The translations under genes were made by a program, and so were the position numbers. Under the pieces are notes generated by a model. It made no database searches. It saw only the letters and a program-made list of their open reading frames with translations, and was not told the origin of the DNA. A DNA stretch of 64,000 nt from Thermoplasmata archaeon. GTDB lineage: Archaea > Thermoplasmatota > Thermoplasmata > Lutacidiplasmatales > UBA184. Of the stretch, positions 6,593 to 47,859 are shown piece by piece (the stretch's first letter is position 1; each line of letters opens with the position of its first letter). The stretch spans positions 71,710 through 135,709 of the forward strand of contig JASHOK010000006.1 in assembly GCA_030041175.1 (NCBI GenBank). Direction: 5' to 3'.

Positions 6593-6593
6593 G

Positions 6594-8847: not shown

Positions 8848-8864
8848 GGGGTCCTACTGCCCCG

Positions 8865-10828: not shown

Positions 10829-10899
10829 CGAACCGCCCCGGTGTTCGACCGGGGGCAGGGTATTTTCGCGAAACCGGCCCGATGAACGGTGGAGGGTGC

Positions 10900-11559
10900 C
10901 TAGGCTCTGGCCAGGAGAAGCGCGACGTGGTCCCGCGAGAACGGCGTGAGGGCTCGCTGGTCAACGACCCTCCACCCCTGCTGTCCGAGGGCCTCCCGCG
11001 TTTCGGACACTACGGCGTTCGTCGATTTCCGTTGGGTGACGGACCGGACCTTGAGCATCAGCAGACCGGTTCCCGCGGTGGCCAGACAGCTCCGAGCATT
11101 CTCGAGAAAGACCTCGGCCTGGTTGCGCTGGGCAATGTCCTGGTACAGGAAGTCGACCCTACCGACGTCTGCCGCATAACGCTCCGGAAGCTGGGCGTCT
11201 GCGAGGATCGGAAAGAGATTCGGCCGGCGTCGGGAAAGGCCCAGGAGTGTGCCGAAGGTGGTCGCGCTCTTCTCGATCGCGAAGAGCTGACTATCGGGGA
11301 GCAGATCCGAGAGATGGCTCAGGGTCGTGCCGTGAGCTGCCCCCAGGTAGAGCACCCGATGCGGATGCTCGAAGGGCAGCCGAGTCGCCCCGTTCACGAG
11401 GTAGGCCGCGAGTTTCGAGCGCCAGGGATCCCATCGTCGGTACTCGTCGCTGCCCTCGCGGACGACCTCCTCCCCGTACACCCGTTCCCCCGGCCGCAAG
11501 TTCCGGGTGTAGAGCTCGCGACCGCGTCGCAGAATTCCGGGCCAGTCGCTCGCGGGCAC
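10900..11559 (-). CDS. flpA: Fibrillarin-like rRNA/tRNA 2'-O-methyltransferase
   Basis: The sequence reads YRRWDPWRSKLAAYL..VLYLGAAHGTTLSHLSDL..LFAIEKS..NLFPILADA..P..Y...V..VDFLYQDIAQRNQAEVFLENA...L...G.GLLMLKVRS. The start is set at the in-frame GTG at 11559, 9 nt after the RidA stop. The 494-aa ORF in the track is an artefactual upstream extension. Confidence 0.85.
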   Translation of the reverse strand: MPASDWPGILRRGRELYTRNLRPGERVYGEEVVREGSDEYRRWDPWRSKLAAYLVNGATRLPFEHPHRVLYLGAAHGTTLSHLSDLLPDSQLFAIEKSATTFGTLLGLSRRRPNLFPILADAQLPERYAADVGRVDFLYQDIAQRNQAEVFLENARSCLATAGTGLLMLKVRSVTQRKSTNAVVSETREALGQQGWRVVDQRALTPFSRDHVALLLARA

Positions 11560-11567
11560 GGTCCTTG

Positions 11568-12038
11568 TCAGCCCTCGGTGATCGCGACCTGAACTTCCAG
11601 TTCCACCGGGGCGTTCAGCGGGAGGGCCGCCACGCCGATGGTGGCGCGGGCCGGGCGTCCGCGATCCCCGAACACGGCGACCAGGACTTCGGTCGCCCCG
11701 TTCGCGACCTCGTGCTGGCGGTCGAAGGAAGCGGCCGAGGCCACGTAGACCACCACGCGCACTACCTGCCGGATCCGATCGAGCGAGCCGAGCGCTGCCT
11801 GCAAGGCGCTGAGCGCCTGGAGCATCGCGTCGCGGGCGACGTCCCGGGCTACCTCGGGTGGCACCGTACCGCCCACGAGCCCGGGATGCACGATTCGCCC
11901 GTCCTTCCGGACAATCTGGCCGGAGACCCATGCGTAGGCGCCGTGTACCACGACGGAAGAGTAGGTGCCGGCCGGCTCCGGGGGGGCCGGAAGAACCACC
12001 CCTAGCTCTCGTAACCGCTGCGTTGCGCTGCCCGCCAC
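11568..12038 (-). CDS. RidA/YjgF/L-PSP family reactive-intermediate deaminase
   Basis: 156 aa with Y..VVVHGAYAWVSGQ.., ..VRVVVYVA.. and ARATIGVAALPLNAPVELEV, the typical RidA C-terminal signature. Confidence 0.85.
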   Translation of the reverse strand: MAGSATQRLRELGVVLPAPPEPAGTYSSVVVHGAYAWVSGQIVRKDGRIVHPGLVGGTVPPEVARDVARDAMLQALSALQAALGSLDRIRQVVRVVVYVASAASFDRQHEVANGATEVLVAVFGDRGRPARATIGVAALPLNAPVELEVQVAITEG

Positions 12039-12139
12039 GTCCTCCGAACTTCCGGTACTCCCAAAAGACTATGCCGGCGACACACCGGTGAGACCGTCGC
12101 CGCGAAGGGTAAAGTCTCGCACGGCGTCGAGGGGTTGGA

Positions 12140-12469
12140 ATGGTCTTCCTATTCCGTCGCTTCCGCAAGGAGAAGAAAGAAGAGCCGCCCAGCCCGGAGT
12201 CTACCCCCGAAGCCGCAGAGCCGCCGTCCCCGGAAGCCATTGCGCCAACACCCGCCCCCGAGCCGACGATCCCGGCCGCCCCGGAGCCGACGCCCGAGCC
12301 GGCGCCGGAGCCGGAACCGTTGCCGCCAGGCCCCCCTCCCCCTTTGCCAACGGCCAGTCCGGCCGTGAGCGGGGGGGCCCCCACGCCGCCGGGGTCGGAG
12401 TGCTTTCTCTGCGGGACGCCCCTCCAGGACCACTATTGCCCGAAGTGCCAGATGACCTGGGCCGAGTGA
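12140..12469 (+). CDS. Small Pro-rich protein with C-terminal zinc ribbon
   Basis: 109 aa. The basic N-terminus reads MVFLFRRFRKEKKEE, followed by a PEPxP-rich linker, and the protein ends in CFLCGTPLQDHYCPKCQ (CxxC-x8-CxxC). GC3 is high throughout. No homology recognised. Confidence 0.45.
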   Translation: MVFLFRRFRKEKKEEPPSPESTPEAAEPPSPEAIAPTPAPEPTIPAAPEPTPEPAPEPEPLPPGPPPPLPTASPAVSGGAPTPPGSECFLCGTPLQDHYCPKCQMTWAE

Positions 12470-12558
12470 AGTGCGCGGTCGAACGATGAGCGACGATCGG
12501 GTCTGCAGTCCGGCCGCCAGTCTTTTGACGAAGCAGCCCGTCGTTCTAGTCCCGGGGG

Positions 12559-14229
12559 ATGGTACGTGCCCCCTACAGAGCCGGTGGTAGACTGGGAGCT
12601 TCGGACGCTGCGTCGGAACTAGGGACCCTCGAACACAAGGTTGTTGACCACCTCTTCGTCCTCTCGCCGGCCTCCGCCGTGAGCTCGGGGATTCACGAGT
12701 ACGACGGCCGGCTCCCGGACCTTCGACGCGAGGCTACCGACCTGTGGGCCTCGGCGGCGGACAAACTACTCCGGCAAGTGCGGGACCTACCCCTGGAGTC
12801 GCTCTCCGCGGGCAGTCGGTACGACCGGATGCTACTCGAGATGGGTCTCGAAAGCGCGCTGTTCGACCTGCGCGATTCCCGAGACTTCGACGTCAATCCG
12901 ATGGTGCACGTGGGGGGGCTCTCCCTCACGCCCTACACGGTTCGGCCATACGCCACTCTGGAGATCCGAATCGAGGCCATGCATCGCCAACTCGGCGGGG
13001 TGCCCCTGGCGCTTAGCCGCGGATTAGACCGGCTCGAGCCCGCGGTGCCCGCCCCGTTCGTCCGGCTCGCCATCGGCATCGCTCGCGGCCTCGAAGCGAA
13101 CTACCGCGGCGTGGAGCCTCTCGTTCGGTCCTTTAGCGACGCCTCCTTCGAGCGGATTCGAGAGGTCCGAGACCCGGCGATCGACGCCGTACGATCGTTC
13201 GCCGAGCGGCTGGAGCAGGAGTGGCTGCCCCGGGCGACGCAGGACTATGCGTTGGGGGAAGAGAAGTTCCAGCGGCTGCTCTGGGTCCGCGAACGGGTCC
13301 GGGTTCCGATCGAGGACATTCTGAAAGCCGGTCGGGCCGACCTGGTGCACAATCAGAGCCGTCTCCAAGCGATCGCCAAGGCGGCCAACCCTCCGACGGA
13401 CGGACCGGGCCTGCTCCAGCGAGCCGCGGCGACCCACCCGACCGCCGCCGAGCTCATCGACCGGGCGCGGGTGTTCGTCGAGGAGATGAAGCTCTTCGTC
13501 CGGGAGAAGGAACTTGCGTCCATCCCGGAGCCGGCGGTCTGCCGAGTCGAAGAAACTCCCCCGGACCATCGGGGCCTCTCGACGGCGAGCATGAACGGTC
13601 CCGGCCCGTTCGAAACCGCCGGGCAAGAGGGGATGTACTTCGTCACCCCGGCCGACCCCACCTGGTCGGCGGAAACGCAGGACCAGTGGCTGCGCTCCTT
13701 CAACGACAGCGTCCTACGAAACGTAACCGCGCACGAGGTCTATCCCGGCCACTTCCTGCAGTTCCTCCACCTGCGTCGCTCCACGGGCGGCTTGGCCCGG
13801 AAGGTGATTCTCTCCGGGGCGTTCATCGAGGGATGGGCCCATTACGCGGAGCAGGTCGTCGTCGAGCAGGGCCTCGGAGCCGGGGCCCCCGAGGCCGAAG
13901 CGGCCCAGCTGTATGACGCGCTCCTCCGCGACTGCCGGCTGATTTCGGCGATCGGCCTGCACACCCAGGGAATGACCGTTGCCCAGTCGACCGAACTGTT
14001 CGAGCGGGAGGGGCTCTGCGAGCCCATCGTCGCGCAGCGAGAGGCCGGCCGCGGAACGTACGATCCGGTCTACTTCGGGTACACGCTCGGAAAGCTCGCG
14101 ATCCTAGACGCCCGCCATCGTCACTTGCAATCGCAATTCGGAGGGTCTCTCCGGGCGTTCCATGACCGGCTGCTGAGCTACGGGGCGCCCCCCGTCGGCT
14201 TCCTGGACGAGTTGCTGCGGGCCTCGTAA
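12559..14229 (+). CDS. DUF885-family (metallopeptidase-like) protein
   Basis: 556 aa. The motif AHEVYPGHFLQF followed by ..EGWAHYAE.. matches the conserved HE..PGH/EGWA.Y core of DUF885 proteins. Confidence 0.8.
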   Translation: MVRAPYRAGGRLGASDAASELGTLEHKVVDHLFVLSPASAVSSGIHEYDGRLPDLRREATDLWASAADKLLRQVRDLPLESLSAGSRYDRMLLEMGLESALFDLRDSRDFDVNPMVHVGGLSLTPYTVRPYATLEIRIEAMHRQLGGVPLALSRGLDRLEPAVPAPFVRLAIGIARGLEANYRGVEPLVRSFSDASFERIREVRDPAIDAVRSFAERLEQEWLPRATQDYALGEEKFQRLLWVRERVRVPIEDILKAGRADLVHNQSRLQAIAKAANPPTDGPGLLQRAAATHPTAAELIDRARVFVEEMKLFVREKELASIPEPAVCRVEETPPDHRGLSTASMNGPGPFETAGQEGMYFVTPADPTWSAETQDQWLRSFNDSVLRNVTAHEVYPGHFLQFLHLRRSTGGLARKVILSGAFIEGWAHYAEQVVVEQGLGAGAPEAEAAQLYDALLRDCRLISAIGLHTQGMTVAQSTELFEREGLCEPIVAQREAGRGTYDPVYFGYTLGKLAILDARHRHLQSQFGGSLRAFHDRLLSYGAPPVGFLDELLRAS

Positions 14230-14252
14230 CCCCCGGCGCGGCGGGGCCCGGC

Positions 14253-14741
14253 CTACGACGTGGCGCCGCAGTTCGGGCAACGCCCCCGGCTCTCGTCGTA
14301 CGTCGAGCGGCAGTACGGGCACCGCATCAGTACCGTCGTGGCCGCCGGCGCGGGTGGGACATGCACCTGCACCGTGATGGGCGCCGGACCTCCCCCGAGA
14401 ACCGGCGGTGGGGCGTCCTGCTTTGCCTCGGCAAAGAACTGGCGCCAGATTTCCGGATGGTCGACCACGAAGTCGACCTCTCCCCGATGCGTCTGGAAGC
14501 GCAAACGGGAAGAGTCGAAGAACCGGATCCGGAGTCTCGGCCGATTCACGTGCGCGTCGCTCACCAAGTCGAGCGGGAGGTCGAGCAGTGTGGAGGTCGA
14601 GCCGGCGCGGATCAAACCGGGGCGCGTCACTTCGAAGACGAGTCGATAGTTCGTGAGGAAGAGGAGCCCCGCGGCCTTCTGGTGGGTGAGAGACGTCGCC
14701 GGCCCCTGGGTCAGGACTTTCTCTCCACGATGGAGGATCAT
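14253..14741 (-). CDS. Hypothetical protein: PH/GRAM-like N-terminal domain plus C-terminal zinc ribbon
   Basis: 162 aa. GEKVLTQGPATSLTHQKAAGLLFLTNYRLVFEV resembles bacterial PH/GRAM folds. The C-terminus reads RCPYCRSTYDESRGRCPNCG. Confidence 0.6.
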   Translation of the reverse strand: MILHRGEKVLTQGPATSLTHQKAAGLLFLTNYRLVFEVTRPGLIRAGSTSTLLDLPLDLVSDAHVNRPRLRIRFFDSSRLRFQTHRGEVDFVVDHPEIWRQFFAEAKQDAPPPVLGGGPAPITVQVHVPPAPAATTVLMRCPYCRSTYDESRGRCPNCGATS

Positions 14742-14784
14742 GGCTGGTAGGGCCCCGACGGTGTGACCCGACCCGGGCTCGGGG

Positions 14785-15102
14785 TCACTGTCCTTTCTTG
14801 CCCTTCTGCAGGTCCTTCCCGAGGTTTTCCAACTCCTTGCCTACCTCGTGGACCGCCTTCCGGGTCAGATCGCTCACGTCGCGGACCGCCAGCTTGGCCT
14901 CTCCGAGGGCAGCCTTGCCCGTTCGCTTGGCCTCCGAGACGACCGCCTTGGTCGCCTCCACCGTATCCGCGGCGGCCTTGCGCACCGAGCCCGAGGCCCG
15001 GGGGGAACCGGGCGGGGGCGGGGCGAGGACCGCCGGTCGGCCACACGCCGGGCAGGCATTCGCTCCTGGGGGTAGGGGGGCTCCGCATCCATCGCAGTTC
15101 AT
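14785..15102 (-). CDS. Small zinc-ribbon protein with a helical Lys/Ala-rich tail
   Basis: The start is taken at the internal ATG, giving MNCDGCGAPLPPGANACPACG, followed by a Pro-rich linker and a repetitive helical segment (AADTVEATKAVVSEAKRTGKAALGEAKLAVRDV..). Confidence 0.5.
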   Translation of the reverse strand: MNCDGCGAPLPPGANACPACGRPAVLAPPPPGSPRASGSVRKAAADTVEATKAVVSEAKRTGKAALGEAKLAVRDVSDLTRKAVHEVGKELENLGKDLQKGKKGQ

Positions 15103-15231
15103 GGTCTTCGCTCCGAGGAATACAGTATCCGTCGCGGTCAGATATGGAGGTTGCCTCGGGGAGATCGGTCGTGCCGGCCCCCCGGCGGAGCTCATCTAGC
15201 GTCCGGAGTTTCGACCCTCGGGCAGGGACGC

Positions 15232-16131
15232 ATGGAAGACCAGGAAGGGTTCGTCTCCGTTCTCGGCTACAAGCAGTACTATCGGGTCGCGGGGCCGTCC
15301 GACGCGCCGGCGACGATCCTCACGCTGCACGGCGGACCGGGGAGCAGCCACCACTACCTGCTGTCGCTCCGGGACCTGACCCGCTGGGGGTATCGGGTCA
15401 TCTTCTTCGACCAACTCGGCTGCGGGGCTTCGGAGGTTCCGCCGACCACCGACCACTTCAGCCTCGAGCACAACGTCGAGGAAACGGAGGTCCTTCGACA
15501 GCAGCTCGGACACGGGAAGGTGCACCTGATCGGGTCCAGTTACGGGGGACTACTCGCGCTCGCGTACGCGATCAAATACCAACAGCACCTGCGCAGTCTC
15601 GTAACCGTCGGGGGCCTCGCCGACGTGCCGTTCGCCACCGCCGAAATGGCCCGCCTCATCGACGAGCTGCCGGCGGAAGATGCCCAGGCCATCCACGTAC
15701 ACGGAGACCGCGGCGAGCTCCAGCACCCGGACTATGTCCGGGCGACCCAGCGCTTCTACCACAGTTATCTCTGCCGCCTCCCCACCTGGCCTCCGGAGCT
15801 CACCCGGTCGCTCCAGCTCGGGGACGAGCGGCCGGTCTACCGATACATGAACGGCCCGAACGAGTTCACGATCACCGGGACCATCCGGGACATTGACCTA
15901 CGTCGCCAGCTGCCCACGATCCGCGTGCCGACCTTGGTGCTCGGCGGGAAGTATGACGAGGTCACGCCCGCGGTGGCGGAGCAGATCCACGCCGGCATCG
16001 TCGGCGCGCGGCGCGTCACCTTCGACCAGAGTTCCCATACACCCTTCTGGGAGGAACGCGAGGCGTTCATGTCGACGGTCGCATCGTTCCTGGCGGACGT
16101 GGACCGGGGCTCGGGCCCGACCCGAACCTAG
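15232..16131 (+). CDS. pip: Proline iminopeptidase (alpha/beta hydrolase; tricorn-interacting factor F1-like)
   Basis: The sequence reads TLHGGPGSSHHYLLSL..FFDQLGCG.S, with the nucleophile elbow LIGSSYGGLLALAYAIKYQ, then MNGPNEFTITGTIRD and PTLVLGGKYDEVTP. It is collinear with my recollection of Thermoplasma F1. Start at the internal ATG (MEDQEG..). Confidence 0.9.
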   Translation: MEDQEGFVSVLGYKQYYRVAGPSDAPATILTLHGGPGSSHHYLLSLRDLTRWGYRVIFFDQLGCGASEVPPTTDHFSLEHNVEETEVLRQQLGHGKVHLIGSSYGGLLALAYAIKYQQHLRSLVTVGGLADVPFATAEMARLIDELPAEDAQAIHVHGDRGELQHPDYVRATQRFYHSYLCRLPTWPPELTRSLQLGDERPVYRYMNGPNEFTITGTIRDIDLRRQLPTIRVPTLVLGGKYDEVTPAVAEQIHAGIVGARRVTFDQSSHTPFWEEREAFMSTVASFLADVDRGSGPTRT

Positions 16132-16157
16132 AAACGGTCGGACCCGGATTCCGGGAC

Positions 16158-16829
16158 GTGGCGGAGGATCACCGACCCCCCGCGTGGGACCTGTACTGGT
16201 CGACGGTCGAGGGGCAGCTCGGGGCCGGTCCGAGCGGGTTCGTTCGCTGGGCGCTCCCCTTTCTGCAGTCGGCCCCGGGCACCGAGCTGGTCGAGATCGG
16301 ATCCGGTGCCGGACGCGACCTCGGGTACCTCCTGGAGAACGGATTCTCGGTCCGCGGGGTCGACTTCTCCTCGGAGGCGGTCCGTATCACGCGGCAGCTC
16401 CTCGCGACCCTCCCGCCGGAGGTTTCCGCCCGGGGCCACGTCGAACTCGGTGAGGCCACCGCATTCCTCGGGCGGCTACCCGAGGGAGGTCTGTCCGGGG
16501 TCGTCGGCCTGGTGCTCTACGAAACGTTCACCGACCCGGAATTGGACGCGCTCTTCCGCGGCATCCTCCGGACGCTCCGACCGGGCGGCGTCCACCTGTG
16601 GTGCGTCCGGGACGACGCCCATCCGCTCCGCGAGAAGGTGACGATGGTACCGCCGAACCAGGGAGGGCCCCCGGGTCGGACGGTCGGGCACACCTTCTTC
16701 TCCCGGTCGAGGTGCGATATCCTCACCGGGCTTGGCTTCGAACGAATTGCGCTCGAGCCCCGACCCGAGACCCACTACTTCTTCGTCGCCGACCGAAAAC
16801 CGGTCGCCGGGGCGCCCGGCGCTCAGTGA
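16158..16829 (+). CDS. Class I SAM-dependent methyltransferase
   Basis: Motif I reads LVEIGSGAGRDLGYLLENGFSVRGVDFS and post-I/II reads LRPGGVHLW. GTG start. Confidence 0.75.
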   Translation: MAEDHRPPAWDLYWSTVEGQLGAGPSGFVRWALPFLQSAPGTELVEIGSGAGRDLGYLLENGFSVRGVDFSSEAVRITRQLLATLPPEVSARGHVELGEATAFLGRLPEGGLSGVVGLVLYETFTDPELDALFRGILRTLRPGGVHLWCVRDDAHPLREKVTMVPPNQGGPPGRTVGHTFFSRSRCDILTGLGFERIALEPRPETHYFFVADRKPVAGAPGAQ

Positions 16830-38843: not shown

Positions 38844-39749
38844 TCACCGAGTCGCGGAGAGCAGCTCATTCGCGCCGGCCTCCAGGAAGTCGCGTCCGAG
38901 CTCCTGACCCAGCGAGTGCGCGGACGCCGCGGGCCCTCTCCGGGACTTCCGGAGCCGGAGCCGTCCGTCCGGCGCTAGCACCTCTCCGACCAGCCCAAGC
39001 GTTCGGCCCCGGGCGACGGCCAGGGCCCCCAGGGGCAGGTTGCAATCCCCACCGAGCTCGGCAGCGAACGCCCGTTCGGCCGTGACTGACGCATGAGTTG
39101 GCGGGTCGTCCAGAGCGCGGGCCAGTGCCGCTACGGGGCCGTCACCCGTTCGTGCGACGACCGCCAGCGCGCCCTGCGCCGGAGCGGGGAGAAAGTCGCG
39201 GAGAGGGAGCCGTCGGCCGATCTCGCTCTCCCGCGCGAGCCGGAGGAGTCCTGCAACGGCGAGGATCGCGGCGTTGACAGCGCCCGAGCGAACCACGCCG
39301 ATCCGGGTGTCCACGTTGCCTCGAATCTCCACGACGTTGAGGTCGGGTCGCCACCGGAGCAGCTGGGCCCGTCGCCGAAGACTGCTCGACCCCACCCGTG
39401 CGCCCGCGGGCAGCGAGCCGACGCGGTGGGGACGACTCGTTACGAGACAGTCGCGGGGATCGGCGCGCACCGGGCAAGCGACAAGGTCGATGCCCGGGTC
39501 CAGCTCGAGGGGAAGATCCTTGGCACTGTGGACCGCCAGATCGATCTCCCCCCGAAGCAACGCGCGGTCGAGCGCGTCGGTAAAATCGGGGGAGCCTCCC
39601 GGGGTCCGGTCCGTATCGCCACTCGCATCGATCGGGACCGCTTCCAACTGGACCCGGGGGTTCCGCCGGTGAAGCCGTGCCAGTACCGAGTCCGTCTGGG
39701 CCCGGGCGAGCGCACTCCTCCGGGTGCCGACCCGGAGTCTATCGGTCAC
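38844..39749 (-). CDS. hemC: Hydroxymethylbilane synthase (porphobilinogen deaminase)
   Basis: Motifs present: LRVGTRRSALARAQT, ..GEIDLAVHSAKDLP.., RGNVDTR, ..PAPAQGALAV.. and the cofactor Cys context GGDCNLPLGA. Confidence 0.92.
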   Translation of the reverse strand: MTDRLRVGTRRSALARAQTDSVLARLHRRNPRVQLEAVPIDASGDTDRTPGGSPDFTDALDRALLRGEIDLAVHSAKDLPLELDPGIDLVACPVRADPRDCLVTSRPHRVGSLPAGARVGSSSLRRRAQLLRWRPDLNVVEIRGNVDTRIGVVRSGAVNAAILAVAGLLRLARESEIGRRLPLRDFLPAPAQGALAVVARTGDGPVAALARALDDPPTHASVTAERAFAAELGGDCNLPLGALAVARGRTLGLVGEVLAPDGRLRLRKSRRGPAASAHSLGQELGRDFLEAGANELLSATR

Positions 39750-41170
39750 GGCTCCGACGGGGCCGGGCGGAGAAGCTCCACCGCCAGCCGTCGCTCGAGG
39801 TCGCCGGCGGGTCCTGCCGGCAGAGAGCGGATTCGCTCCGTGGAGGGAGCGAGCAGCTGAGCCACTAATCTTCGGGTGAGCCGGTCGATGGCGGCCTCCT
39901 GATCCGCATCAAGGGGGCCCAAGAACTTTCGCGCCCGCTCGACCTCGGCCCGCCGGGTCGCCTCCGCGGTGCGATACAACGCATCGATCCAGGGCTCCAG
40001 CAGGAGCCGCTCGATTCGACCCGAGAACCGGTCCGCGAGCTCCTGTACCCGGGCATCCGGCCGCGAGGGGGCCCGAGGGTCTCGGGACCAGGCATGGAGT
40101 TCCTCCAGATCGACGAGCCGGATGCCCGGTCGTTGACGGACGGCGGGATCGATGTTGCGAGGCATGCCTAGATCCACCAAGATCATCGGCCGATCGGGCG
40201 GAAGATCCGCGGCGCGGATTCCGTGGTGGCCGAACTTGGCCGCGGTCACGATCGCGTCCGCGTTCGCCGCTAGGCTCCCCAACCGATCCATGGGCGCCGC
40301 ATCGACGCCGATGTTCCGAAGGAACTCATCGCTCGGAGGCCGGGTGTGGTACACGAGAGTGGCCCGAATATCAGGAGAAAGGCAGCGGGCGACCTGCCGG
40401 CCGACCGTCCCCGACCCCACAACCAGCACCCGCGCCGACGGCGCTGCCAGGAGTGTTCGAAGGTAGGTCACCGCCATCGACGCGATCGACTGCGGGGGAG
40501 CCTCCCCGGAGGCCAGTTCCTGGGCCGTGGATGCGGCTCCCTGCAACACCTCCCGAAGTACGGGCCGCGGATGCCGGCTGAGAACCCGGAAACCGGCGGC
40601 TCGTACCTGCTGGCTGACCTCGAGTTCTCCCCGAGCGAGAGACTCCCGACCGGTCGCGACCCGGAAGAGGTGCCGGACGAGTTCTCGACCGTCGCGGAGC
40701 CGCCAGACACTCTGGGGGCCCGGCAGATCCGCGAGCCAGCGGTCGACACCGGCGGGGTCGCGCAAGAGCAGGACGAGTTCGACCCGGTGGCAGGTGGTTA
40801 GGAGCCCAACCTCCTCGGTGCCGGAGTGGCGCTCAAAGAGCGGGGGGAGTACCTCCAGAGGGAACGACCGAACGATGGATTCTAGCTGGTCCAGCGTGGC
40901 CGTGTCGAAGCTGCACTCGAGTCCGACGAGCGATAGCGGCTGGGTCGGACCCTCGCGTTCGGCCGAGCCGTCCGGCCGGGGGAGGACAAGGCGGTACGCG
41001 GAGAGACGGTTCGCGGGGGTAGATGACACACTCAACCCAGGGCCACGGTTCGAACCGCGGCCGACCTTTATGAGTCGAGGTACGAACCCGGAGCCGGTCC
41101 AGTCCTCCGCCGGAGAAGGTCTCTTCGGCCCCGCGGGGTCGTGGGGTGACTCGGGCCCGGAACGGCTCAA
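39746..41170 (-). CDS. hemA: Glutamyl-tRNA reductase (start uncertain)
   Basis: The sequence reads LLTTCHRVELVLL (catalytic Cys), then ..FRVATGRESL..GE.EV..QVR.., with the NADPH site VLVVGSGTVGRQVA. Alternative in-frame starts are TTG at 41035 and GTG at 41029. The ATG at 41170 adds a Pro/Gly-rich leader of about 45 aa. Confidence 0.85.
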   Translation of the reverse strand: MSRSGPESPHDPAGPKRPSPAEDWTGSGFVPRLIKVGRGSNRGPGLSVSSTPANRLSAYRLVLPRPDGSAEREGPTQPLSLVGLECSFDTATLDQLESIVRSFPLEVLPPLFERHSGTEEVGLLTTCHRVELVLLLRDPAGVDRWLADLPGPQSVWRLRDGRELVRHLFRVATGRESLARGELEVSQQVRAAGFRVLSRHPRPVLREVLQGAASTAQELASGEAPPQSIASMAVTYLRTLLAAPSARVLVVGSGTVGRQVARCLSPDIRATLVYHTRPPSDEFLRNIGVDAAPMDRLGSLAANADAIVTAAKFGHHGIRAADLPPDRPMILVDLGMPRNIDPAVRQRPGIRLVDLEELHAWSRDPRAPSRPDARVQELADRFSGRIERLLLEPWIDALYRTAEATRRAEVERARKFLGPLDADQEAAIDRLTRRLVAQLLAPSTERIRSLPAGPAGDLERRLAVELLRPAPSEP

Positions 41171-41239: not shown

Positions 41240-43891
41240 GTGTCGATGCAACCGGTCGTTCCCTTGCTCAGCGACCTCGCCCCCGACGGATTCGATTTCT
41301 CGGGCCAATACATGGTCGAATTCGATGCGGATTCCTTGTGGTACGAAACGTCCCTGACGATCGCCGCACGGGCGCTCGAGGGAGGATTCAAGACCGAATA
41401 CCACGTCTTCGAACATTTTCCGCGCGAGGCCCGTCAGGCGCTCACCCGCCTCGGCGTCGACGCGGCCCGGCTGGAGGCCGACGGCCTCCTGAACATCTGG
41501 GATAGCTACACCGAAACCACCGAGTTCGAGAAGGCGCGGACCACGGGACCCGGCTGGGAAATGGCGGGTCCAAAACCCCTGGACATCGTCCAGGGCGCGG
41601 CCCGGTGGGTAGAACGCACCAAGAAGGGGTTCGATCCGAGGGAAATGCGGTGGCTGCACCTCGACGACAACACGGGCATCTTTCTCCAGTACAACGACGA
41701 GCAGACCGTAGTGGATCGCTGGCGGACGGCGCTCCTTCCGGCCATACGAGCCCGGGAGTGTCCCCACTTTCTCGCCTTTCCCAAGGGCATCGCCTCGGAG
41801 GCGTTCTACACGAAGTTCGAGGCGCTCTGCGATGGAATCATTGACCTGAAGACGGAGGAGGTCGAGGGTCAGGTCGAGCGATTCCTGCGGATCCGACGGT
41901 TGAAGGGTCGGGTCGCCGATTCGCACTGGCATCGACTGGAAATGCAGGCCGACGGAGCGGTCCGACTCGGCCACCCCCCGTCGCTCGGTCCTGCCCGGCG
42001 GCTCGCGGCTATCATGTTCACCGACATGGTGGGGAGCACCCGCGCGGCGCAGGAAGACGAGGCGAGCGCGCTGGAGCTGATCCGGGCCCAGGAAGAGCTG
42101 CTACGGCCCCGATTCTCGGCGCATCAGGGCCGGGTGATCAAGTCGCTGGGAGACGGGTTTCTCGTCGTGTTCGATAGCGCGCTGCGCGCGGTCCAATGCG
42201 CCGTAGACATCCAGCAGGCGATTCGAAGCCGGAATGCCGGCAGCGGGACTCGGCCGATCCAACTCCGGATCGGGGTGCACCTCGGTGACATCGAGGAACG
42301 CGGAAGTGACGTCTTCGGAGATTCGGTCAACATTGCCGCCCGGATCGAACCGTTGGCCGATCCCGAGGGGATTTGCATCACGGAACCCGTGTTCGGACAG
42401 GTCCAGAACAAGATCACGAACCGTTTCGAGAAGCTGGAGCCTCAGACGCTGAAGGATGTACGGTTTCCGGTCGACGTGTACCGGATGCGCATGTCCTGGG
42501 ACCCGGGACCGGCCCTCGCGGCGACCTGGGACCCCCGCCGGGTCGCTGTCATGCCGCTGGTCAACATGATCCCCGACCCCAGTGAGGCGTACTTCGCGGA
42601 TGGCATGACCGAGGAGATCATCTCCGCGATTTCCAAGGTCCGGGACCTTGCCGTTATCTCGAGAACGTCGGTAACACAGTACAAGAACACCACGAAGAAG
42701 GTTGCCGAAATTGCCCGGGACCTGAACGTGGGCACCCTGTTGGAGGGTAGCGTCCGCAAGGCGGGAAACCGGGTCCGGATCGCGGTCCAACTGATCGACG
42801 CCAATAGCGACAAGCACCTGTGGTCCGAGAACTACGACCGTACGCTCGATGACGTGTTCTCCATCCAGAGCGAGATCGCTCAAGGCGTGGCCTCCCGTCT
42901 GCAGGTCACCCTGCTGGACAGTGACCGAAAGCGGCTCGAAAGGGCACCGACGAGGGACCCGGAAGCCCACGCCTTTTTCCTCAAGGGGCGAGCGGCGCAC
43001 GGGCCCGTGAACGCGATCGAGTTCTACCGGAAGGCCGTCGAGAAGGACCCGCGGTATGCGCTGGCCCACGCGTGGCTGGCGATTGCAACTCTCAACCGAG
43101 GGTTCTCGGACATCGTCCCGGCGCTCGACGCCGCCCGGGAGGCGGAGTCGAGCCTCCAGCAGGCGTTGGTCCTGGATCCGGCCCTGCCAGAAGCGCACGC
43201 GGCGCGGGCCTTCGCGCTGTACCTCCGATGGGACTTCGAAGGCGCCCAGACGGAAGCAAACCGAGCGCTCGAGCTGGACCCGAACTCCCACGAGGCCCTC
43301 GCCTATGGCGCGTTCCTGTTGCGGCTCCCGCGACGATTCGAGGAATCAGAGAAGCTGGTCCGGAGGGCGTTGGAGCTGGACCCCCTGTCGCCGGCAACAC
43401 TCCGCGACGCCGGGACGGATCTACTCTACCTGGGTCGGCCGGAGGAGGCCGCCGCTCTCTTCAAGACGGTCCTCGAGATCGAACCCGAGGAAGCGACCGC
43501 GCGCGGTAACCTCGGACTCGCCTGCGTGCAGCAGGGGCTCTTGGACCAAGGGGTCGCGATGATTCGCGACGGGATCCGGATGTCCGGAGGGATCGAGGTG
43601 GCGACGGCCTGCGACCTGTCCTACGCCCTGCGGAAAGCCGACCGGCTCGGCGAGTTGCGCGAGTTTCTCACCGAGGTTCTCGCGTGGTACACGCAGAGGG
43701 GGTACGGCGCCACTGCGCTCGTCGCCGTCTACGCGAACCTCGGGGAGCTCGACCCGGCGTTCGAGTGGTTCGGACGCGCGTTGGACGAGCATTCCGCCTA
43801 CCTGCCCACCGCCGTCTTCGATTTCGCTTTCGAGAATCTGTGGCCCGACCCTCGGTTTGAGTCCCTCAAGGAACGTCTGGGCCTCCGGTGA
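41240..43891 (+). CDS. Multidomain signalling protein: N-terminal RecA/KaiC-like domain lacking a P-loop, class III adenylate/guanylate cyclase domain, TolB-N-like domain, TPR repeats
   Basis: The cyclase core reads RRLAAIMFTDMVGSTRAAQ..GRVIKSLGDGFLVVF......V.CA..IQ......IQLRIGVHLGDIE..G.DVFGDSVNIAARIE. The next domain reads RVAVMPLVNMIPDPSEAYFADGMTEEIISAISKVRDLAVISRTS..., then LLEGSVRKAGNRVRIAVQLIDA. The C-terminal third has TPR-type A..A...A/L..P repeats. The call for the N-terminal 250 aa is a low-confidence inference. Confidence 0.85.
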   Translation: MSMQPVVPLLSDLAPDGFDFSGQYMVEFDADSLWYETSLTIAARALEGGFKTEYHVFEHFPREARQALTRLGVDAARLEADGLLNIWDSYTETTEFEKARTTGPGWEMAGPKPLDIVQGAARWVERTKKGFDPREMRWLHLDDNTGIFLQYNDEQTVVDRWRTALLPAIRARECPHFLAFPKGIASEAFYTKFEALCDGIIDLKTEEVEGQVERFLRIRRLKGRVADSHWHRLEMQADGAVRLGHPPSLGPARRLAAIMFTDMVGSTRAAQEDEASALELIRAQEELLRPRFSAHQGRVIKSLGDGFLVVFDSALRAVQCAVDIQQAIRSRNAGSGTRPIQLRIGVHLGDIEERGSDVFGDSVNIAARIEPLADPEGICITEPVFGQVQNKITNRFEKLEPQTLKDVRFPVDVYRMRMSWDPGPALAATWDPRRVAVMPLVNMIPDPSEAYFADGMTEEIISAISKVRDLAVISRTSVTQYKNTTKKVAEIARDLNVGTLLEGSVRKAGNRVRIAVQLIDANSDKHLWSENYDRTLDDVFSIQSEIAQGVASRLQVTLLDSDRKRLERAPTRDPEAHAFFLKGRAAHGPVNAIEFYRKAVEKDPRYALAHAWLAIATLNRGFSDIVPALDAAREAESSLQQALVLDPALPEAHAARAFALYLRWDFEGAQTEANRALELDPNSHEALAYGAFLLRLPRRFEESEKLVRRALELDPLSPATLRDAGTDLLYLGRPEEAAALFKTVLEIEPEEATARGNLGLACVQQGLLDQGVAMIRDGIRMSGGIEVATACDLSYALRKADRLGELREFLTEVLAWYTQRGYGATALVAVYANLGELDPAFEWFGRALDEHSAYLPTAVFDFAFENLWPDPRFESLKERLGLR

Positions 43892-44036
43892 CCGGAATCC
43901 GGTCCGCCCTCCGGTTCGGGTGAGGGGCCATCGTCCCGGACGAGAAATTTCTGAGTCGCCCGATGTATCGGGCGGAAGAATTTCGATGGCGAGGGTAATG
44001 GCACCCCAGGAGTCGGAGGGGGTCTTCGCACCCCCA

Positions 44037-44051
44037 GGGGTTCAGATCCGG
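44037..44051. repeat. tRNA T-arm-like motif GGGGTTCAGATCCGG (left copy of direct repeat set)
   Basis: Read directly from the sequence. It is nearly identical to GAGGGTTCAAATCCGGG at 44704-44720, and the two copies bracket the toxin-antitoxin pair. Confidence 0.5.
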
Positions 44052-44073
44052 TGAAGAACCGGTCCGGCAAGGT

Positions 44074-44331
44074 CTAGCGCTGGTAGACCCTGCGGCGGTG
44101 GTCGACCCTTTCCACCGTGATCACCCGCTCCGAGGGCGAGAGTGCCGCGAGCAAGCGATAGTCGCCCACGCGGAGTTTGCGTTCGTCGGAGCCCACCAAC
44201 TTCTCGAAATAGTGGTCCGGATCGGTGGAAGCCCTCTCCAAGCGGCCGACGATCCGGCGCGCGACGGTTCGGTCCAGGGACTGCAGGTCACGAATCGCCG
44301 TGTCGGTCCACTGGATCTTCCAAGGCCTCAG
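44074..44331 (-). CDS. RelE/ParE-family toxin (start apparently CTG)
   Basis: Not in the ORF track. My translation gives (L)RPWKIQWTDTAIRDLQSLDRTVARRIVGRLERASTDPDHYFEKLVGSDERKLRVGDYRLLAALSPSERVITVERVDHRRRVYQR*, a classic RelE/ParE pattern (A..DL..L.......I...I..L...P; RlRvGdYRl.y.......i.i..v.hR...Y). The CTG overlaps the antitoxin stop (CTGA). Confidence 0.7.
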   Translation of the reverse strand: MRPWKIQWTDTAIRDLQSLDRTVARRIVGRLERASTDPDHYFEKLVGSDERKLRVGDYRLLAALSPSERVITVERVDHRRRVYQR

Positions 44332-44564
44332 AGACCCAACCGCTGCTTGACGAGATCGTGGTCGGTCACCTGTCGCGCGCGGATGTCGAGTCGGGCACTG
44401 AGGAGCCCGATACGGAACGAGTCGGTGTACACTCCCTCGTCGTCGCCCTCCGGAACCAGGGCGATGAGCTTGTTCACCAATTCGTCATAGGTCTCTCGCG
44501 GAGTCGCCTTGAGCGCTGCCAGCCTTTCCCGAGTGGAGGAGGACAGCTGGATGGTCGTAATCAT
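44328..44564 (-). CDS. Antitoxin (archaeal putative-antitoxin / ribbon-type N-terminus)
   Basis: 78 aa. MITTIQLSSSTRERLAALKATPRETYDELVNKLIALV resembles the small archaeal antitoxin family (TI.lsdet...L..lK...eSfsdvI..Ll). It lies directly upstream of, and overlaps, the RelE-like ORF. Confidence 0.7.
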   Translation of the reverse strand: MITTIQLSSSTRERLAALKATPRETYDELVNKLIALVPEGDDEGVYTDSFRIGLLSARLDIRARQVTDHDLVKQRLGL

Positions 44565-44565
44565 C

Positions 44566-44587
44566 AGCTATGTGATGCCACATAGCT
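44566..44587. promoter_or_regulatory. Perfect palindrome AGCTATGTG-ATGC-CACATAGCT abutting the antitoxin start codon (candidate TA operator)
   Basis: Read directly from the sequence. It begins 2 nt upstream of the antitoxin ATG (44564) on the minus strand. A TATA-like ACTATATG (complement of 44589-44596) follows just upstream. Confidence 0.55.
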
Positions 44588-44703
44588 CCCATATAGTTTT
44601 GGACATTCCAGGTCGGTGAGGGAGGTCCGGCGAACTGAATCGCGCCCCGCATCAGAATCCCATCTCTCCCGCCACACTTCAGTAGTGAGATGGTCACACC
44701 CAC

Positions 44704-44740
44704 GAGGGTTCAAATCCGGGTACCTGAGGGTTCAAATCCA
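44704..44740. repeat. Tandem direct repeat 2 x GAGGGTTCAAATCC (22-nt period), plus a degenerate third copy CGTTCAAATTCC at 44768-44779
   Basis: Read directly from the sequence. The copies resemble the GGGTTCAAATCC core of the T-arm of the tRNA genes in this window, but the flanks do not form T-stems. Confidence 0.6.
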
Positions 44741-44899
44741 AAATGTCGGAGGGGGGAACTGCTGAATCGTTCAAATTCCCTACGTGGCGGGTGTATGGCG
44801 ATTGGCCTCTTCAGGGACCCAGGAACACCAGGTGCCCTGGGCGGCGCACGTTTTCGCGGGTGGACCGGGGCTTAATCTAACAAAGACCGTTCTCAGGTC

Positions 44900-46828
44900 G
44901 TGCCGACGACCCGACGGCTGGCGGCCATCATGTTCACCGACATGGTGGGGTACACTGCGGCCGCCCAGGTCGACGAAAGGGCCACGCTAGCGCTACGCAA
45001 CGAGCAGGAGGCTATCGTCCGTCCGATGCTCACCAAGCATCAAGGCCGGGTGGTCAAGTCCACCGGCGACGGGCTCCTCGTCGAGTTCGACAGTTCTCTC
45101 AAAGCGACCGAGTGCGCGATCAGCATCCAGCGGAAGCTTCACGAACGCAGCGAGAGGACCACTGCTACCCCTATCAACCTACGGATCGGCATTCACCTAG
45201 GGGATGTAGAACAGCAAGGGGCTGACATTTTCGGTGACGCGGTAAACATCGCCTCTCGAATTCAGCCGGTGGCGGAGCCGGGCGGAATCTGCGTCTCGAA
45301 CGCTGTCCATGAGCAGGTCTGGAACAAGATCTCCGACAAGCTCGAAGAGCTCCCTCCGACGGCACTCAAGGGACTACGGGTTCAGATGGACCTCTACCGG
45401 GTCATCTTGCCGTGGACCGATGAGGCATCCCGATCCGCGACCCCCGGTCCAACCGGAATCGCGGTCCTCCCCTTCACCAACATTAGCCCGGACCCGAAGG
45501 ACGAGTACTTTGCGGACGGACTTACTGAGGAGCTGATCTCCGTACTCTCCCGGCTGCGGGACCTTCGGATTATCGCGCGAACGTCGATAACACCCTACAA
45601 ATCGACCTCGAAGGGTGTCTCCCAGATCGGAGCGGAGCTGGGCGTCTCGTCCATTTTGGAGGGGAGCGTGCGGAAATCCGGGAGCCGTTTGCGGATCACG
45701 GTCCAACTAATCGACGTCGGTTCCCAGGGGCATGTCTGGGCGCACACATACGACCGGGAGCTCGACGACATCTTCGCGGTCCAAACCGACATCGCCATGC
45801 AAGTAATGGATGCCCTAAAGCTCGAATTGGCAGGAATTGAGAGGACCCGCCTTCACGCTAGACGTCCGGCGCGGAAGGACTCCTACCTGGCCTACTTGAA
45901 AGGGCGAACTCTGGCTCACGACAGATCCGAAGCGGGCCTGAAGGCGGCGAAGGAACAGTTCGAAATTGCGATCCGCCTAGACCCCGAAAACGCGTCGGCC
46001 TATTCGGGGCTCTCCGATACACTTTACCATCTGGTGACCTACGGCTACACGGGCCCGAATCGGGCCGAGGACATCGCCCTCGGCCGCACCTACGCCGCCC
46101 GGGCGGTCGAACTAGACGCGGACCTCGCGGAAGCCCATGCGTCCCTCGGGAGTGTCTATTGGTACGATTTCCGACACGCTGACGCAGAAAGGGAGTTCTT
46201 GCTTGCGCTATCGCTCAACCCGAGCTATCCCCAGGCCCACACGTGGTACGCACTCCTACTGGAAGAGCTCGGACGACCTGAGGAGGCTCTTCAGGAATTC
46301 GCGCTGGCCGAGCAGGCGGATCCGCTCTCACTGCCTCTCCTCGTGTCGACCGCCCAGCTGCTCAGATGGCTCGGTCGGCTAGACGAAGCTCAAACGAGGA
46401 TCGAAAAGCTCTGGAATGCGAAGACGACACTTTGGGCGGGCCGGACGCAGATGTTCGAGTACTACATGGCCCGATCCGACCCCGAGCGAGCACTGAAGGT
46501 GCTGGATCAGACTAAGGAGGCCAGGCCGGGAGATCCGCGATTGCTGGCCAGTTACGCGGACTACTACGCGCGGACCGGGCAAACGAATCGAGCGATCGAA
46601 CTGCTTCGGGAGTTCGAGACGCAGACCGAAGGCCTCCCGTACCGAGAAGTGACCCTAGCGGACGTGTACACATCTCTAGGTAAGCTCGATGAGGTCTTCC
46701 GCTGGCTCGAAAAGGCGCTCGAGGCCCACTGGCTCGATGTCCGGAACTGGCGACTAAATCCGAACGCCGCCCGCGTGCGGGCTGACCCGAGATTCCAAGC
46801 CCTCCTGAAAAGGATGAAGCTCGCCTGA
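44900..46828 (+). CDS. Class III adenylate/guanylate cyclase, TolB-N-like domain, TPR protein (paralog of 41240..43891 without the N-terminal domain)
   Basis: The sequence reads RRLAAIMFTDMVGYTAAAQ..GRVVKSTGDGLLVEF......ECA..IQ.....INLRIGIHLGDVE..G.DIFGDAVNIASRIQ, then IAVLPFTNISPDPKDEYFADGLTEELISVLSRLRDLRIIARTS, then LEGSVRKSGSRLRITVQLIDV, followed by TPR repeats. GTG start. Confidence 0.88.
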   Translation: MPTTRRLAAIMFTDMVGYTAAAQVDERATLALRNEQEAIVRPMLTKHQGRVVKSTGDGLLVEFDSSLKATECAISIQRKLHERSERTTATPINLRIGIHLGDVEQQGADIFGDAVNIASRIQPVAEPGGICVSNAVHEQVWNKISDKLEELPPTALKGLRVQMDLYRVILPWTDEASRSATPGPTGIAVLPFTNISPDPKDEYFADGLTEELISVLSRLRDLRIIARTSITPYKSTSKGVSQIGAELGVSSILEGSVRKSGSRLRITVQLIDVGSQGHVWAHTYDRELDDIFAVQTDIAMQVMDALKLELAGIERTRLHARRPARKDSYLAYLKGRTLAHDRSEAGLKAAKEQFEIAIRLDPENASAYSGLSDTLYHLVTYGYTGPNRAEDIALGRTYAARAVELDADLAEAHASLGSVYWYDFRHADAEREFLLALSLNPSYPQAHTWYALLLEELGRPEEALQEFALAEQADPLSLPLLVSTAQLLRWLGRLDEAQTRIEKLWNAKTTLWAGRTQMFEYYMARSDPERALKVLDQTKEARPGDPRLLASYADYYARTGQTNRAIELLREFETQTEGLPYREVTLADVYTSLGKLDEVFRWLEKALEAHWLDVRNWRLNPNAARVRADPRFQALLKRMKLA

Positions 46829-46847
46829 CGTCCGCACGCTCGCGAAG

Positions 46848-46955
46848 TGTCGGAGGGGGGATTTGAACCCCCGACCCCAGGATCTCTCCAGCGGCTCGGT
46901 CCGTGGCCGAAGCGCTCTATGAGTCCCGTGCTCTGCCAGGCTGAGCCACTCCGAC
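46848..46955 (-). tRNA. tRNA with CAU anticodon (elongator Met, or Ile2 if modified) with a 34-nt intron at 37/38
   Basis: The minus strand reads GTCGGAG-TG-GCTC-AGCCTGGCA-GAGC-A-CGGGA-CTCATA[34 nt]A-TCCTG-GGGTC-GGGGG-TTCAAAT-CCCCC-CTCCGAC-A. The G1-C72 pair argues against an initiator. The intron can form an AGCG/CGCT helix plus a partial BHB. Confidence 0.85.
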
Positions 46956-46998
46956 GGTGCCCCCGCGCGGCCGCGCCCTCCTCGCGATCGGGACGGGC

Positions 46999-47727
46999 TC
47001 AGGCCGCCGACCCGGCGCTCTCCTCAGCGGCTGGCGCCTCGGGAGCGGAAGGCCCGGACGGCCCGGCGTCGGCGGTCGGCGCCTCGGCACCGGCCGGCGT
47101 CGGCTCGTCGGCGATCGGCCCGAGGATCTCGGACCGGCGGATCTCGATCTTCTTGAGCGGGTAGAGCGTCCGAAGCCCCTGGGATAGGGTCTTTCCGAGA
47201 TCGCCCTGCAGCATCTCGCGGACGAAGTCGGCGGCGGTTCGCTTGCCCGCCTCGTCCACCAGCAGCTGGCGGAGGGTGTTCCGGAGCTCGCTGCGGAGCC
47301 GGGACTGCAGTCGGTGCTCGCCGACGGCGACCGGCTTGAGCCGCATCTGGACCCCGTCCTTCGTCGTGACAAGCAGCGAGGCATCGATCTTGGAGCGCTT
47401 GCGTCGGGCCAGTCGACGGACGTAGTCCGACGTCAGGTCGTGGCCCACGAAGCGGGTCTCGGCCACGCCCTCGCCGCTGATCCGCTCGATCTGAAATCGT
47501 AGCTTGATGTGGGCCTTGGAAATGTCCGCCCCACCGCCCAGCTCGGAGAGCGTAATGTCGATGGTCCGTCCCGTGAGCTGCTCCGGCTCCGTCGAGACGG
47601 TCTCACCGAGGTCGACATGCTGGAAGATGCCGGGGGCCTTGAGCTTGTACCAGCGCTTGGCCCGCCACTTGTCCTTGACGGTACGGGCCAGCGCGGGCTT
47701 CTTCGCAGAGGTCTCCTTTTCGGCCAT
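46999..47727 (-). CDS. rps3ae: 30S ribosomal protein S3Ae (eS1)
   Basis: The sequence reads DKWRAKRWYKLKAPGIFQ...LGET.......L.GR.I...L.EL.G......HIKL.F.I......A.T.F.GH.LT.DY.R.L.RR. Start at the internal ATG (MAEKE..). There is an Ala/Pro/Glu-rich C-terminal tail. Confidence 0.92.
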   Translation of the reverse strand: MAEKETSAKKPALARTVKDKWRAKRWYKLKAPGIFQHVDLGETVSTEPEQLTGRTIDITLSELGGGADISKAHIKLRFQIERISGEGVAETRFVGHDLTSDYVRRLARRKRSKIDASLLVTTKDGVQMRLKPVAVGEHRLQSRLRSELRNTLRQLLVDEAGKRTAADFVREMLQGDLGKTLSQGLRTLYPLKKIEIRRSEILGPIADEPTPAGAEAPTADAGPSGPSAPEAPAAEESAGSAA

Positions 47728-47859
47728 CGGGGTGGGGCCGCCCACTGGGGATTCCTACTTAAATTTGCCGGCTGCGCCGGCGGCGCACCGGCGGCCGGAG
47801 CCGTTTCCCGACTCGTGCCGCCCCAAAGCTAATTAGAGCCGCCCGGGCTCGGCCGCGTC

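Follow-up and report, generated by a model that had tools for sequence, protein, structure and literature searches.

Paralogous class III cyclases in a Thermoplasmata archaeon, one of them fused to a KaiC-like domain without a P-loop

The cyclase locus

The DNA analysed here is a window of 64,000 nucleotides on contig C14 of a Thermoplasmata archaeon (GenBank assembly GCA_030041175.1; genome of 1.79 Mb in 98 contigs, 89% complete), in which two neighbouring genes, A and B, encode large proteins with a class III nucleotide cyclase domain. Protein A has four parts: an N-terminal domain of KaiC/RecA fold lacking the Walker A motif, a cyclase homology domain, an alpha/beta middle domain resembling the N-terminal domain of TolB (TolB-N-like) and a TPR array. 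Protein B has the last three of these. For the N-terminal domain of A we adopted the name iKaiC, a term already used for the inactivated KaiC domains that occur in archaeal response regulators (PMC5847659). The two genes and their domains are listed below in window positions, with the evidence in brackets (ORF, open reading frame; AF2, AlphaFold2).

41240-43891, plus strand: gene A, four-part cyclase with iKaiC, cyclase, TolB-N-like domain and TPR array (ORF of 883 amino acids; Pfam)
41240-41974, plus strand: iKaiC, KaiC/RecA-fold domain without Walker A, residues 1-245 of A (AF2, Foldseek, profile)
41987-42499, plus strand: cyclase homology domain of A, residues ~250-420 (PF00211, 49.8 bits; PDB 3mr7, Ma1120, Rv1900c)
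42533-42934, plus strand: TolB-N-like alpha/beta domain of A, residues ~432-565 (AF2, Foldseek)
42947-43888, plus strand: TPR/alpha-solenoid region of A (multiple TPR Pfam families; consensus-TPR PDB matches)
44900-46828, plus strand: gene B, three-part cyclase of 642 amino acids with cyclase (4-170), TolB-N-like domain (186-320) and TPR (325-642) (ORF; PF00211, 51.9 bits; PDB alignments)

Both ORFs lie on the plus strand at the coordinates given in a first-pass annotation made from the DNA letters, with 883 and 642 residues, and the shared motifs quoted there (RRLAAIMFTDMVG.T, GDG[FL]LV.F, LRIG[IV]HLGD[IV]E, FGD[SA]VNIA[AS]RI and ..P..N...DP...YFADG.TEE.IS) are found in A and B. In the public gene call, A begins two codons further on, with the ATG at 41246, and has 881 amino acids. 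The proteins are paralogues, as had been proposed (38.9% identity over 643 residues, E 4e-132), and belong to a set of four cyclases of the A/B type in this genome, with a mutual identity of 38-46%, among which only A carries iKaiC. Full-length homologues of A form 26 clusters of 885-920 amino acids, all metagenomic; the relatives with named records come from "Thermoplasmata archaeon" metagenome-assembled genomes (MAGs) of soil and peat origin, and peat metagenomes hold near-identical DNA.

Cyclic AMP (cAMP) occurs in archaea. According to a 2023 review (PMC10249747), no archaeal protein for its synthesis, breakdown or binding has been characterised, and the CYTH "class IV cyclases", to which archaeal cAMP was formerly attributed, are phosphatases. 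The locus and its relatives provide testable candidates for archaeal cAMP signalling, with complete-looking class III cyclases and, elsewhere in the genome, small candidate proteins for the binding of cyclic nucleoside monophosphates (cNMP).

The cyclase domains

Pfam model PF00211 matches residues 257-389 of A and 9-166 of B well above its cut-off of 21.9 bits, at the scores listed above, and the closest solved relatives are soluble cyclases of bacteria, namely 3mr7 (Ruegeria/Silicibacter; E 1e-30 and 2e-32), Ma1120, Rv1900c/LipJ and Rv1264. All six canonical catalytic residues are kept in both proteins, so that the case considered in the first-pass annotation, inactive homology domains devoid of the Asp, Asn and Arg residues, does not apply. 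In A, the metal-binding Asp pair is D262 and D305 (located in FTDMVG and TGDG in B), the substrate-specifying pair is K301 and D357, and the transition-state pair is N364 and R368 (VNIASR in B), in the same pattern as in 3mr7; R343 and K405 are extra phosphate-binding basic residues. D262, K301, D305, R343, D357, N364, R368 and K405 are invariant in 19 full-length homologues.

The choice between ATP and GTP can be read from the substrate-specifying pair, which is Lys/Asp in A and B alike and indicates ATP. Comparison of wild-type Ma1120 (4wp9) with its specificity-swap mutant (5d0g/5d0h) shows Lys changed to Glu and Asp changed to Gly, and B has Lys and Asp in those columns. We infer that A and B are ATP-specific adenylate cyclases, a prediction that covers both activity and specificity. 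A membrane-spanning stretch is absent in both (the best 19-residue Kyte-Doolittle means are 1.38 for A and 0.98 for B), hence they are predicted to be soluble. Matches to TIGR04510, the cyclase of a peptide-modification system, scored 58-60 bits, below the curated cut-off of 400.

iKaiC has a KaiC fold and lacks the P-loop

The Pfam KaiC model PF06745 matches A residues 57-239 with 22.8 bits, under its cut-off of 26.6 (26.9 with neighbouring in-frame stretches summed), and several iKaiC relatives pass this cut-off with 29-37 bits. A profile made from alignment A2, which holds 24 members of the iKaiC family (A and 23 relatives), matches the archaeal RecA-superfamily ATPases PH0284 (E 7e-13) and PH0186 (E 2e-11) as well as KaiC. 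The AF2 model of the domain (predicted local distance difference test, pLDDT, 90.7; predicted template modelling score, pTM, 0.88) was aligned by Foldseek with KaiC, PH0284 and FlaH/ArlH at E-values of 4e-14 to 5e-12 and query-normalised template modelling (TM) scores of 0.65-0.73. Profile and structure comparison agree in this way with the earlier suggestion that the N-terminal ~250 residues of A are RecA/KaiC-like, and the domain shares its fold (TM 0.65-0.73) and detectable sequence homology with the archaeal KaiC/RadA-like ATPases PH0284, PH0186, SSO2452 and ArlH/FlaH. No Pfam or NCBIfam model specific to the iKaiC family was present among the matches of the window proteins.

The motif GxxxxGK[ST] is absent from A, as had been pointed out, and from all 23 aligned relatives. 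The position occupied by GGPGTGKT in PH0284-type proteins reads VEFDADSLWYE in A, and DxDSLWYE is an invariant signature of the family. Lacking the P-loop, iKaiC is predicted to be incapable of P-loop-type ATP binding. Sixteen residues (S32, W34, H55, P61, D88, H140, D142, E154, F189, D198, R217, R219, G223, D227, S228 and W230) are invariant across 12 members that are 33-41% identical to the N-terminal domain of A. In RecA-fold proteins the nucleotide is held at the P-loop and the C-terminal ends of the parallel strands, and according to a secondary-structure map several of the invariant residues would sit in the former P-loop segment or at such strand ends. iKaiC is also the best conserved part of the protein, with 72-81% identity compared with 28-35% in the TPR region; between A and its relative P0002 the identity falls from 81% in iKaiC to 54% in both the cyclase and the middle domain and to 28% in the TPR region. 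Judged by these values, iKaiC is under strong constraint and not decaying.

iKaiC domains that have lost their ATPase motifs are known from signalling proteins, namely archaeal response regulators (Galperin et al. 2018, PMC5847659, citing Makarova et al. 2017). The family of A differs from those in carrying DxDSLWYE at the P-loop position and in being joined to a cyclase, not to REC or HalOD1.

Two further loci in the same genome, C6:13964-16105 (plus strand) and C72:5034-7820 (minus strand), each encode a large protein in which long coiled-coil stretches are combined with a KaiC-like domain at the C-terminus. The P-loop of this domain reads GPAHTGKE or GPAFTGKE, with Glu replacing Ser/Thr; in the C72 protein, membrane segments are present at the N-terminus as well.

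The TolB-N-like domain and the TPR array

The middle domain was modelled with AF2 from a 30-sequence alignment of archaeal and bacterial proteins (pLDDT 87.6). Foldseek matched the model to GNA1162, PelC, the TolB N-domain, LpoB, FlgT and the periplasmic domain of CadC (E 1e-7 to 2e-4, query-normalised TM 0.5-0.7), with GNA1162, PelC and TolB at E 1e-7 to 1e-5 and TM 0.6-0.7. By sequence the domain stays under the Pfam cut-offs (~22.5 bits), with 14-15 bits for TolB_N and 13-15 bits for FlgO (E 0.02-0.09 overall, 0.03-0.05 for A), and the NCBIfam models CadC and HilA match the same stretch weakly. Within this genome the domain is confined to the four cyclases.

The first-pass annotation had likened this domain to periplasm-facing TolB-N modules. 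The fold agrees with this, but the location does not, as A and B have no signal peptide or membrane segment, and their TolB-N-like domains are predicted to be cytoplasmic. The alpha/beta fold is that of the CadC periplasmic sensor (3ly7), the TolB N-domain, PelC and LpoB, in contrast to which the domain of A and B has neither signal peptide nor membrane anchor and shows sequence similarity under the family cut-offs. In CadC the fold domain is followed by a helical repeat region, likewise in A and B, so that the two modules together resemble the two-part CadC sensor. Numerous TPR Pfam families match the C-terminal thirds of A and B, in agreement with the long TPR array described earlier, and residues 830-876 of A match the NCBIfam TPR end-of-group domain under its cut-off.

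Distribution and architectures of iKaiC

A search with A residues 1-250 against 1.8 billion representative proteins matched 221 cluster representatives, many of them stand-alone proteins of 240-300 amino acids and others fused to further domains. Species-representative genomes were scanned with alignment A3, which is narrower than A2, and iKaiC was found in 43 loci, of which 41 belong to archaeal MAGs from soil, peat or groundwater; the archaeal hosts are Bathyarchaeota, Nitrososphaerales/Thaumarchaeota and Thermoplasmata. The two loci with bacterial labels (L096, Methylomirabilota, and L130, a beta proteobacterium) lie on MAG contigs of 5 kb and 25.5 kb and may be mis-binned archaeal DNA.

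Stand-alone iKaiC occurs mainly in Bathyarchaeota, often in several copies. iKaiC followed by a cyclase, in proteins of ~430-450 amino acids, is found in Thermoplasmata, Nitrososphaerales and Bathyarchaeia, and these compact two-domain proteins would be easy to express. The four-part form, as in A, occurs in Nitrososphaerales and Thermoplasmata. Order and copy number vary: locus L118 (595-4128) has a tandem iKaiC pair ahead of the cyclase, the Bathyarchaeia protein MGA2239612.1 (P0039) has the reversed order of cyclase then iKaiC, P0043 and P0061 have iKaiC followed by an AAA+ ATPase, P0011 combines iKaiC, AAA+ ATPase, cyclase and TPR, and L108 has iKaiC and cyclase as a split pair of adjacent genes. 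In L123, from a Nitrososphaerales MAG, a four-part gene is directly followed by a three-part cyclase, as in the A-B pair, and L119 shows the reverse order. A scan of ~50 bacterial loci with the iKaiC profile found no iKaiC on bacterial three-part cyclases, and in 80 loci a separate iKaiC gene upstream of iKaiC-less cyclases was represented by only 3 weak or unrelated matches.

The JGI pipeline annotation already labels some of the iKaiC-bearing proteins. We found no description of a KaiC-cyclase combination in the literature, and the family may already stand in Makarova et al. 2017; as far as we could find, the iKaiC-cyclase combination is present in databases and apparently undescribed.

In the C-terminal columns of alignment A2, the stand-alone proteins P0029, P0030, P0033, P0037, P0042, P0056 and P0063 end in a conserved G-W-L-K-G-P, which the fused forms lack; this tail may be a short docking motif.

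Phylogeny and mosaic evolution

The architecture was said to be common in bacteria, and we found it in Rhizobiales, Verrucomicrobiota, Bacteroidota and Fidelibacterota, the cyclase-TolB-TPR module being common to hundreds of bacterial cyclases. The bacterial proteins have their parts in the same order as A and B, are 33-41% identical over residues 253-882 and share the catalytic set and the soluble layout. The backbone is an already known, unstudied architecture, for which no published function was found in the literature. Among archaea, class III cyclases are indeed sparse, occurring in 16 of the 201 genomes of the class, and are concentrated in the family of the window, with 13-14 copies in some genomes of 1.7-2.1 Mb. 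In the genomes G147, G188 and G065 of this family, a lineage-specific expansion has led to 13-14 cyclase-domain genes, with open frames ranging from 343 to more than 1100 amino acids.

A tree was built by a quick method from the cyclase and middle domains (114 sequences, 325 columns) and rooted at its midpoint, the root not being inferred. All 29 named archaeal sequences and, with four exceptions, the metagenomic iKaiC-bearing proteins lie on one side of a branch with a support of 95 in the Shimodaira-Hasegawa-like approximate likelihood-ratio test. Fidelibacterota, Ignavibacteriota, Bacteroidota, Verrucomicrobiota and Pseudomonadota lie on the other side (around the archaeal group under midpoint rooting), and the iKaiC proteins P0023-P0026 are placed outside the archaeal group, beside Fidelibacterota. 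The archaeal proteins are thus separated from the bacterial ones by a supported branch, and A differs further by the addition of the N-terminal iKaiC. This topology is compatible with the bacterial origin that the first-pass annotation wished to see tested, but is no proof of it; one old transfer from bacteria to archaea with subsequent spread among soil archaea fits the tree, whose root was not inferred, so that the direction of the transfer is not proven.

On the same tree the presence of iKaiC requires at least 14 gains or losses, a count that depends on a rapidly built tree in which many branches are weak and on two sets sampled in different ways, and several strongly supported small clades hold both carriers and non-carriers. 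The backbone of B is closer than that of A to the iKaiC-bearing proteins P0005-P0008, with identities of 56-67% in the cyclase, 66-79% in the middle domain and 44-47% in the TPR region. This domain-wise mosaic of identities indicates that iKaiC has moved between cyclase backbones, and the iKaiC-cyclase fusions exemplify the addition of an archaeal domain to a module that bacteria possess as well.

The tRNA gene and the spacer between A and B

The spacer between A and B (43892-44899, 1008 bp) and the region downstream of B contain the following features, those without an assigned strand being marked as unstranded.

44001-44051, unstranded: partial copy of a tRNA 3' end/T-arm (repeat D1)
44074-44564, minus strand: toxin-antitoxin islet with a ParE/RelE-like ORF at 44074-44331 (PF05016, E 1.3e-5) and a DUF7557 gene at 44328-44564 (PF24434, E 1.3e-10)
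44704-44757, unstranded: two exact GAGGGTTCAAATCC repeats and a 17-nt copy of the tRNA 3' end (repeats D3, D4)
46848-46955, minus strand: tRNA gene with anticodon CAU and a 36-nt intron, its 3' end toward B (Rfam RF00005, 54.1 bits, E 3.9e-10)

The spacing of ~1 kb and the intervening toxin-antitoxin islet had been described correctly, but the islet is not the sole content of the spacer, which also holds partial copies of a tRNA 3' end. The tRNA(CAU) gene, found by Rfam and missed by ARAGORN, lies 19 bases past the stop of B. Its 3' end is copied with 16 matches in 17 at 44741-44757, just ahead of B, a weaker copy of 35 nt lies before the toxin-antitoxin islet (44001-44035; 74% identity to 46838-46872), and two exact T-arm-like 14-mers start at 44704 and 44726. 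To judge from these matches, the 3' end of tRNA(CAU) is the source of the repeats.

The guanine-plus-cytosine (GC) fraction is 0.612 in B and 0.611 in the spacer, compared with 0.649 in A and 0.673 in the genome. In L132, the closest relative with a long contig, the A orthologue is found in the same place beside the heme operon, B is missing and other genes come next, among them cyclases of other kinds. We read this arrangement as serial integration at the tRNA gene, which would have brought in B and the toxin-antitoxin islet; no integrase remains at the tRNA locus. A and B are old paralogues, and a tandem duplication was rejected on account of their 39% identity, their differing GC and their differing nearest relatives.

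The surroundings of A and B are archaeal. Upstream of A lies a heme operon ending with hemA (39746-41170, minus strand), and a gene for ribosomal protein S3Ae is located at 46999-47745. A spurious ORF of 105 amino acids (46847-47164, plus strand) overlies the tRNA(CAU) gene.

Candidate receptors of the cyclic nucleotide

A search for cNMP-binding effectors, recommended in the first-pass annotation, revealed three single-domain cNMP-binding proteins of ~145-155 amino acids in the genome. Two of them (C8:2614-3075 and C88:5190-5624) retain the phosphate-binding cassette FGE...R[ST]A; the third (C81:52209-52670, plus strand) is degenerate, with the cassette missing, and may not bind cyclic nucleotides. 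None of the three has a DNA-binding domain and no AsnC-type gene adjoins them. cAMP is likely to be received by small single-domain proteins of this kind.

Proposed function of the cyclases and of iKaiC

From the domain folds, residue sets, absence of the P-loop, distribution and mosaic evolution observed above, we propose a model that we consider reasonably probable as a whole. A and B would be soluble adenylate cyclases. The domains of class III cyclases pair as dimers by an established mechanism, and each cyclase domain of A and B would likewise pair with a second one, generating two sites for the conversion of ATP to cAMP. The TolB-N-like domain and the TPR array, to judge by the architecture, would constitute a regulatory, partner-binding or ligand-binding module. 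iKaiC would be a portable, non-catalytic control or assembly module that perhaps oligomerises the enzyme or docks it onto other proteins and in this way determines the timing of cAMP synthesis, the small cNMP-binding proteins would read the signal, and B would have been added together with the toxin-antitoxin islet at a tRNA integration hot spot.

Several observations weigh against this model or parts of it. The case for the iKaiC role consists of conservation and fusion patterns only, and iKaiC is patchy in the taxonomic family of the window (7 of 81 genomes), which means that the cyclase can do without it. No functional link emerged from the genes around stand-alone iKaiC, the neighbourhoods in Bathyarchaeota displaying only the housekeeping synteny of close relatives, and the properties of the tree and of the sampled sets, given above with the count of 14 changes, tell against that count. 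None of the RNA runs searched carries the gene. As for the insertion of B, in each of the four peat runs the short-read contigs are interrupted at a 30-nt repeat (44728-44757), so that the link between A and B relies on the source assembly and on overlapping pieces whose depths are similar; moreover, the 17-nt repeat pair alone could be due to chance, the case being made by several tRNA-like copies together with the low GC.

iKaiC might instead be a ligand sensor that controls the cyclase allosterically, its former nucleotide site having turned into a pocket that accepts a nucleotide, metal or metabolite; we regard this as possible, although we would not expect it. S32, W34, Y35, E36, H55, D88, H140, D142 and D143 are invariant polar residues located in the former P-loop/alpha-1 or at most one residue from the C-terminal ends of parallel strands, and a Walker-B-like hhhhDD motif (WLHLDD) is kept, but conservation of this kind could also be due to a protein interface. 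Rather doubtful is the docking of the cyclase by iKaiC, in the role of a non-catalytic subunit or partner, onto rings of active KaiC-family ATPases, whereby the output of cAMP would track the state of a KaiC hub, an idea for archaea cited in PMC5847659. The genome has about ten KaiC-family loci, iKaiC is fused to AAA+ ATPases in P0043, P0061 and P0011, the second gene upstream of the A orthologue in L132 encodes a canonical KaiC, and in the alignment with PH0284 most iKaiC members retain the Arg-Gly from the KaiC strand R-x-L-x-I-x-K-x-R-G. A itself, however, has Lys in place of the Arg ahead of the strand Gly, and a canonical KaiC gene has no conserved adjacency either in the window or around the stand-alone iKaiC genes. 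We are similarly hesitant about a related and more speculative role, in which iKaiC would be an adaptor that joins a bacterial-type cAMP generator to the native KaiC-ATPase network, through co-assembly or by sensing its nucleotide or phosphorylation state; if this were true, an energy or timing switch of the KaiC type would gate cAMP synthesis in soil and peat archaea. The iKaiC-cyclase fusions offer a direct handle on the proposal of KaiC-family signalling hubs in archaea.

Two other explanations appear very improbable to us. That iKaiC is a functionless, decaying ATPase remnant, with A acting just like B, would accord with the lost P-loop, with the patchy distribution and with the majority held by iKaiC-less, B-type proteins; against it stand the greater conservation of the domain relative to the TPR region, its 16 invariant residues in members of 33-41% identity, its confidently folded AF2 model and its repeated recruitment in different orders and copy numbers. 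Just as improbable is that the cyclases are Pycsar-type defence enzymes or make a product other than cAMP. B does lie next to a toxin-antitoxin pair in what we read as a hot spot of integration, and PADLOC reports PycC matches, but these are weak (23.5-36 bits) and no stronger than general cyclase-domain similarity, the Lys/Asp pair of A and B is of the ATP-specific type and proteins of the same architecture are frequent in bacteria that live freely. A scan of the window ORFs, including a Pfam scan, found no membrane or TIR effector gene beside either cyclase. Given the weak PycC matches and the lack of an adjacent effector gene, we do not regard A and B as Pycsar enzymes.

Relation to mycobacterial cyclases

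The mycobacterial proteins Rv0386, Rv1358 and Rv2488c, which consist of cyclase, AAA/NB-ARC ATPase, TPR and LuxR domains, resemble A in uniting a cyclase, a domain of P-loop fold and TPR in one soluble protein. Their NTPase domain is of the STAND/AAA type, has an intact P-loop and follows the cyclase, whereas that of A is of the RecA/KaiC type, has no P-loop and precedes the cyclase; unlike the mycobacterial proteins, A has no DNA-binding domain. In the relative L132, a cyclase island (5668-16734) contains a canonical KaiC ATPase, a BNR protein, the four-part cyclase, a DUF1330 protein, a LipJ-like Hydrolase_4-cyclase, a HicB-like antitoxin, a cyclase-AAA_16 gene and a TPR gene, the last two of which recall the mycobacterial layout.

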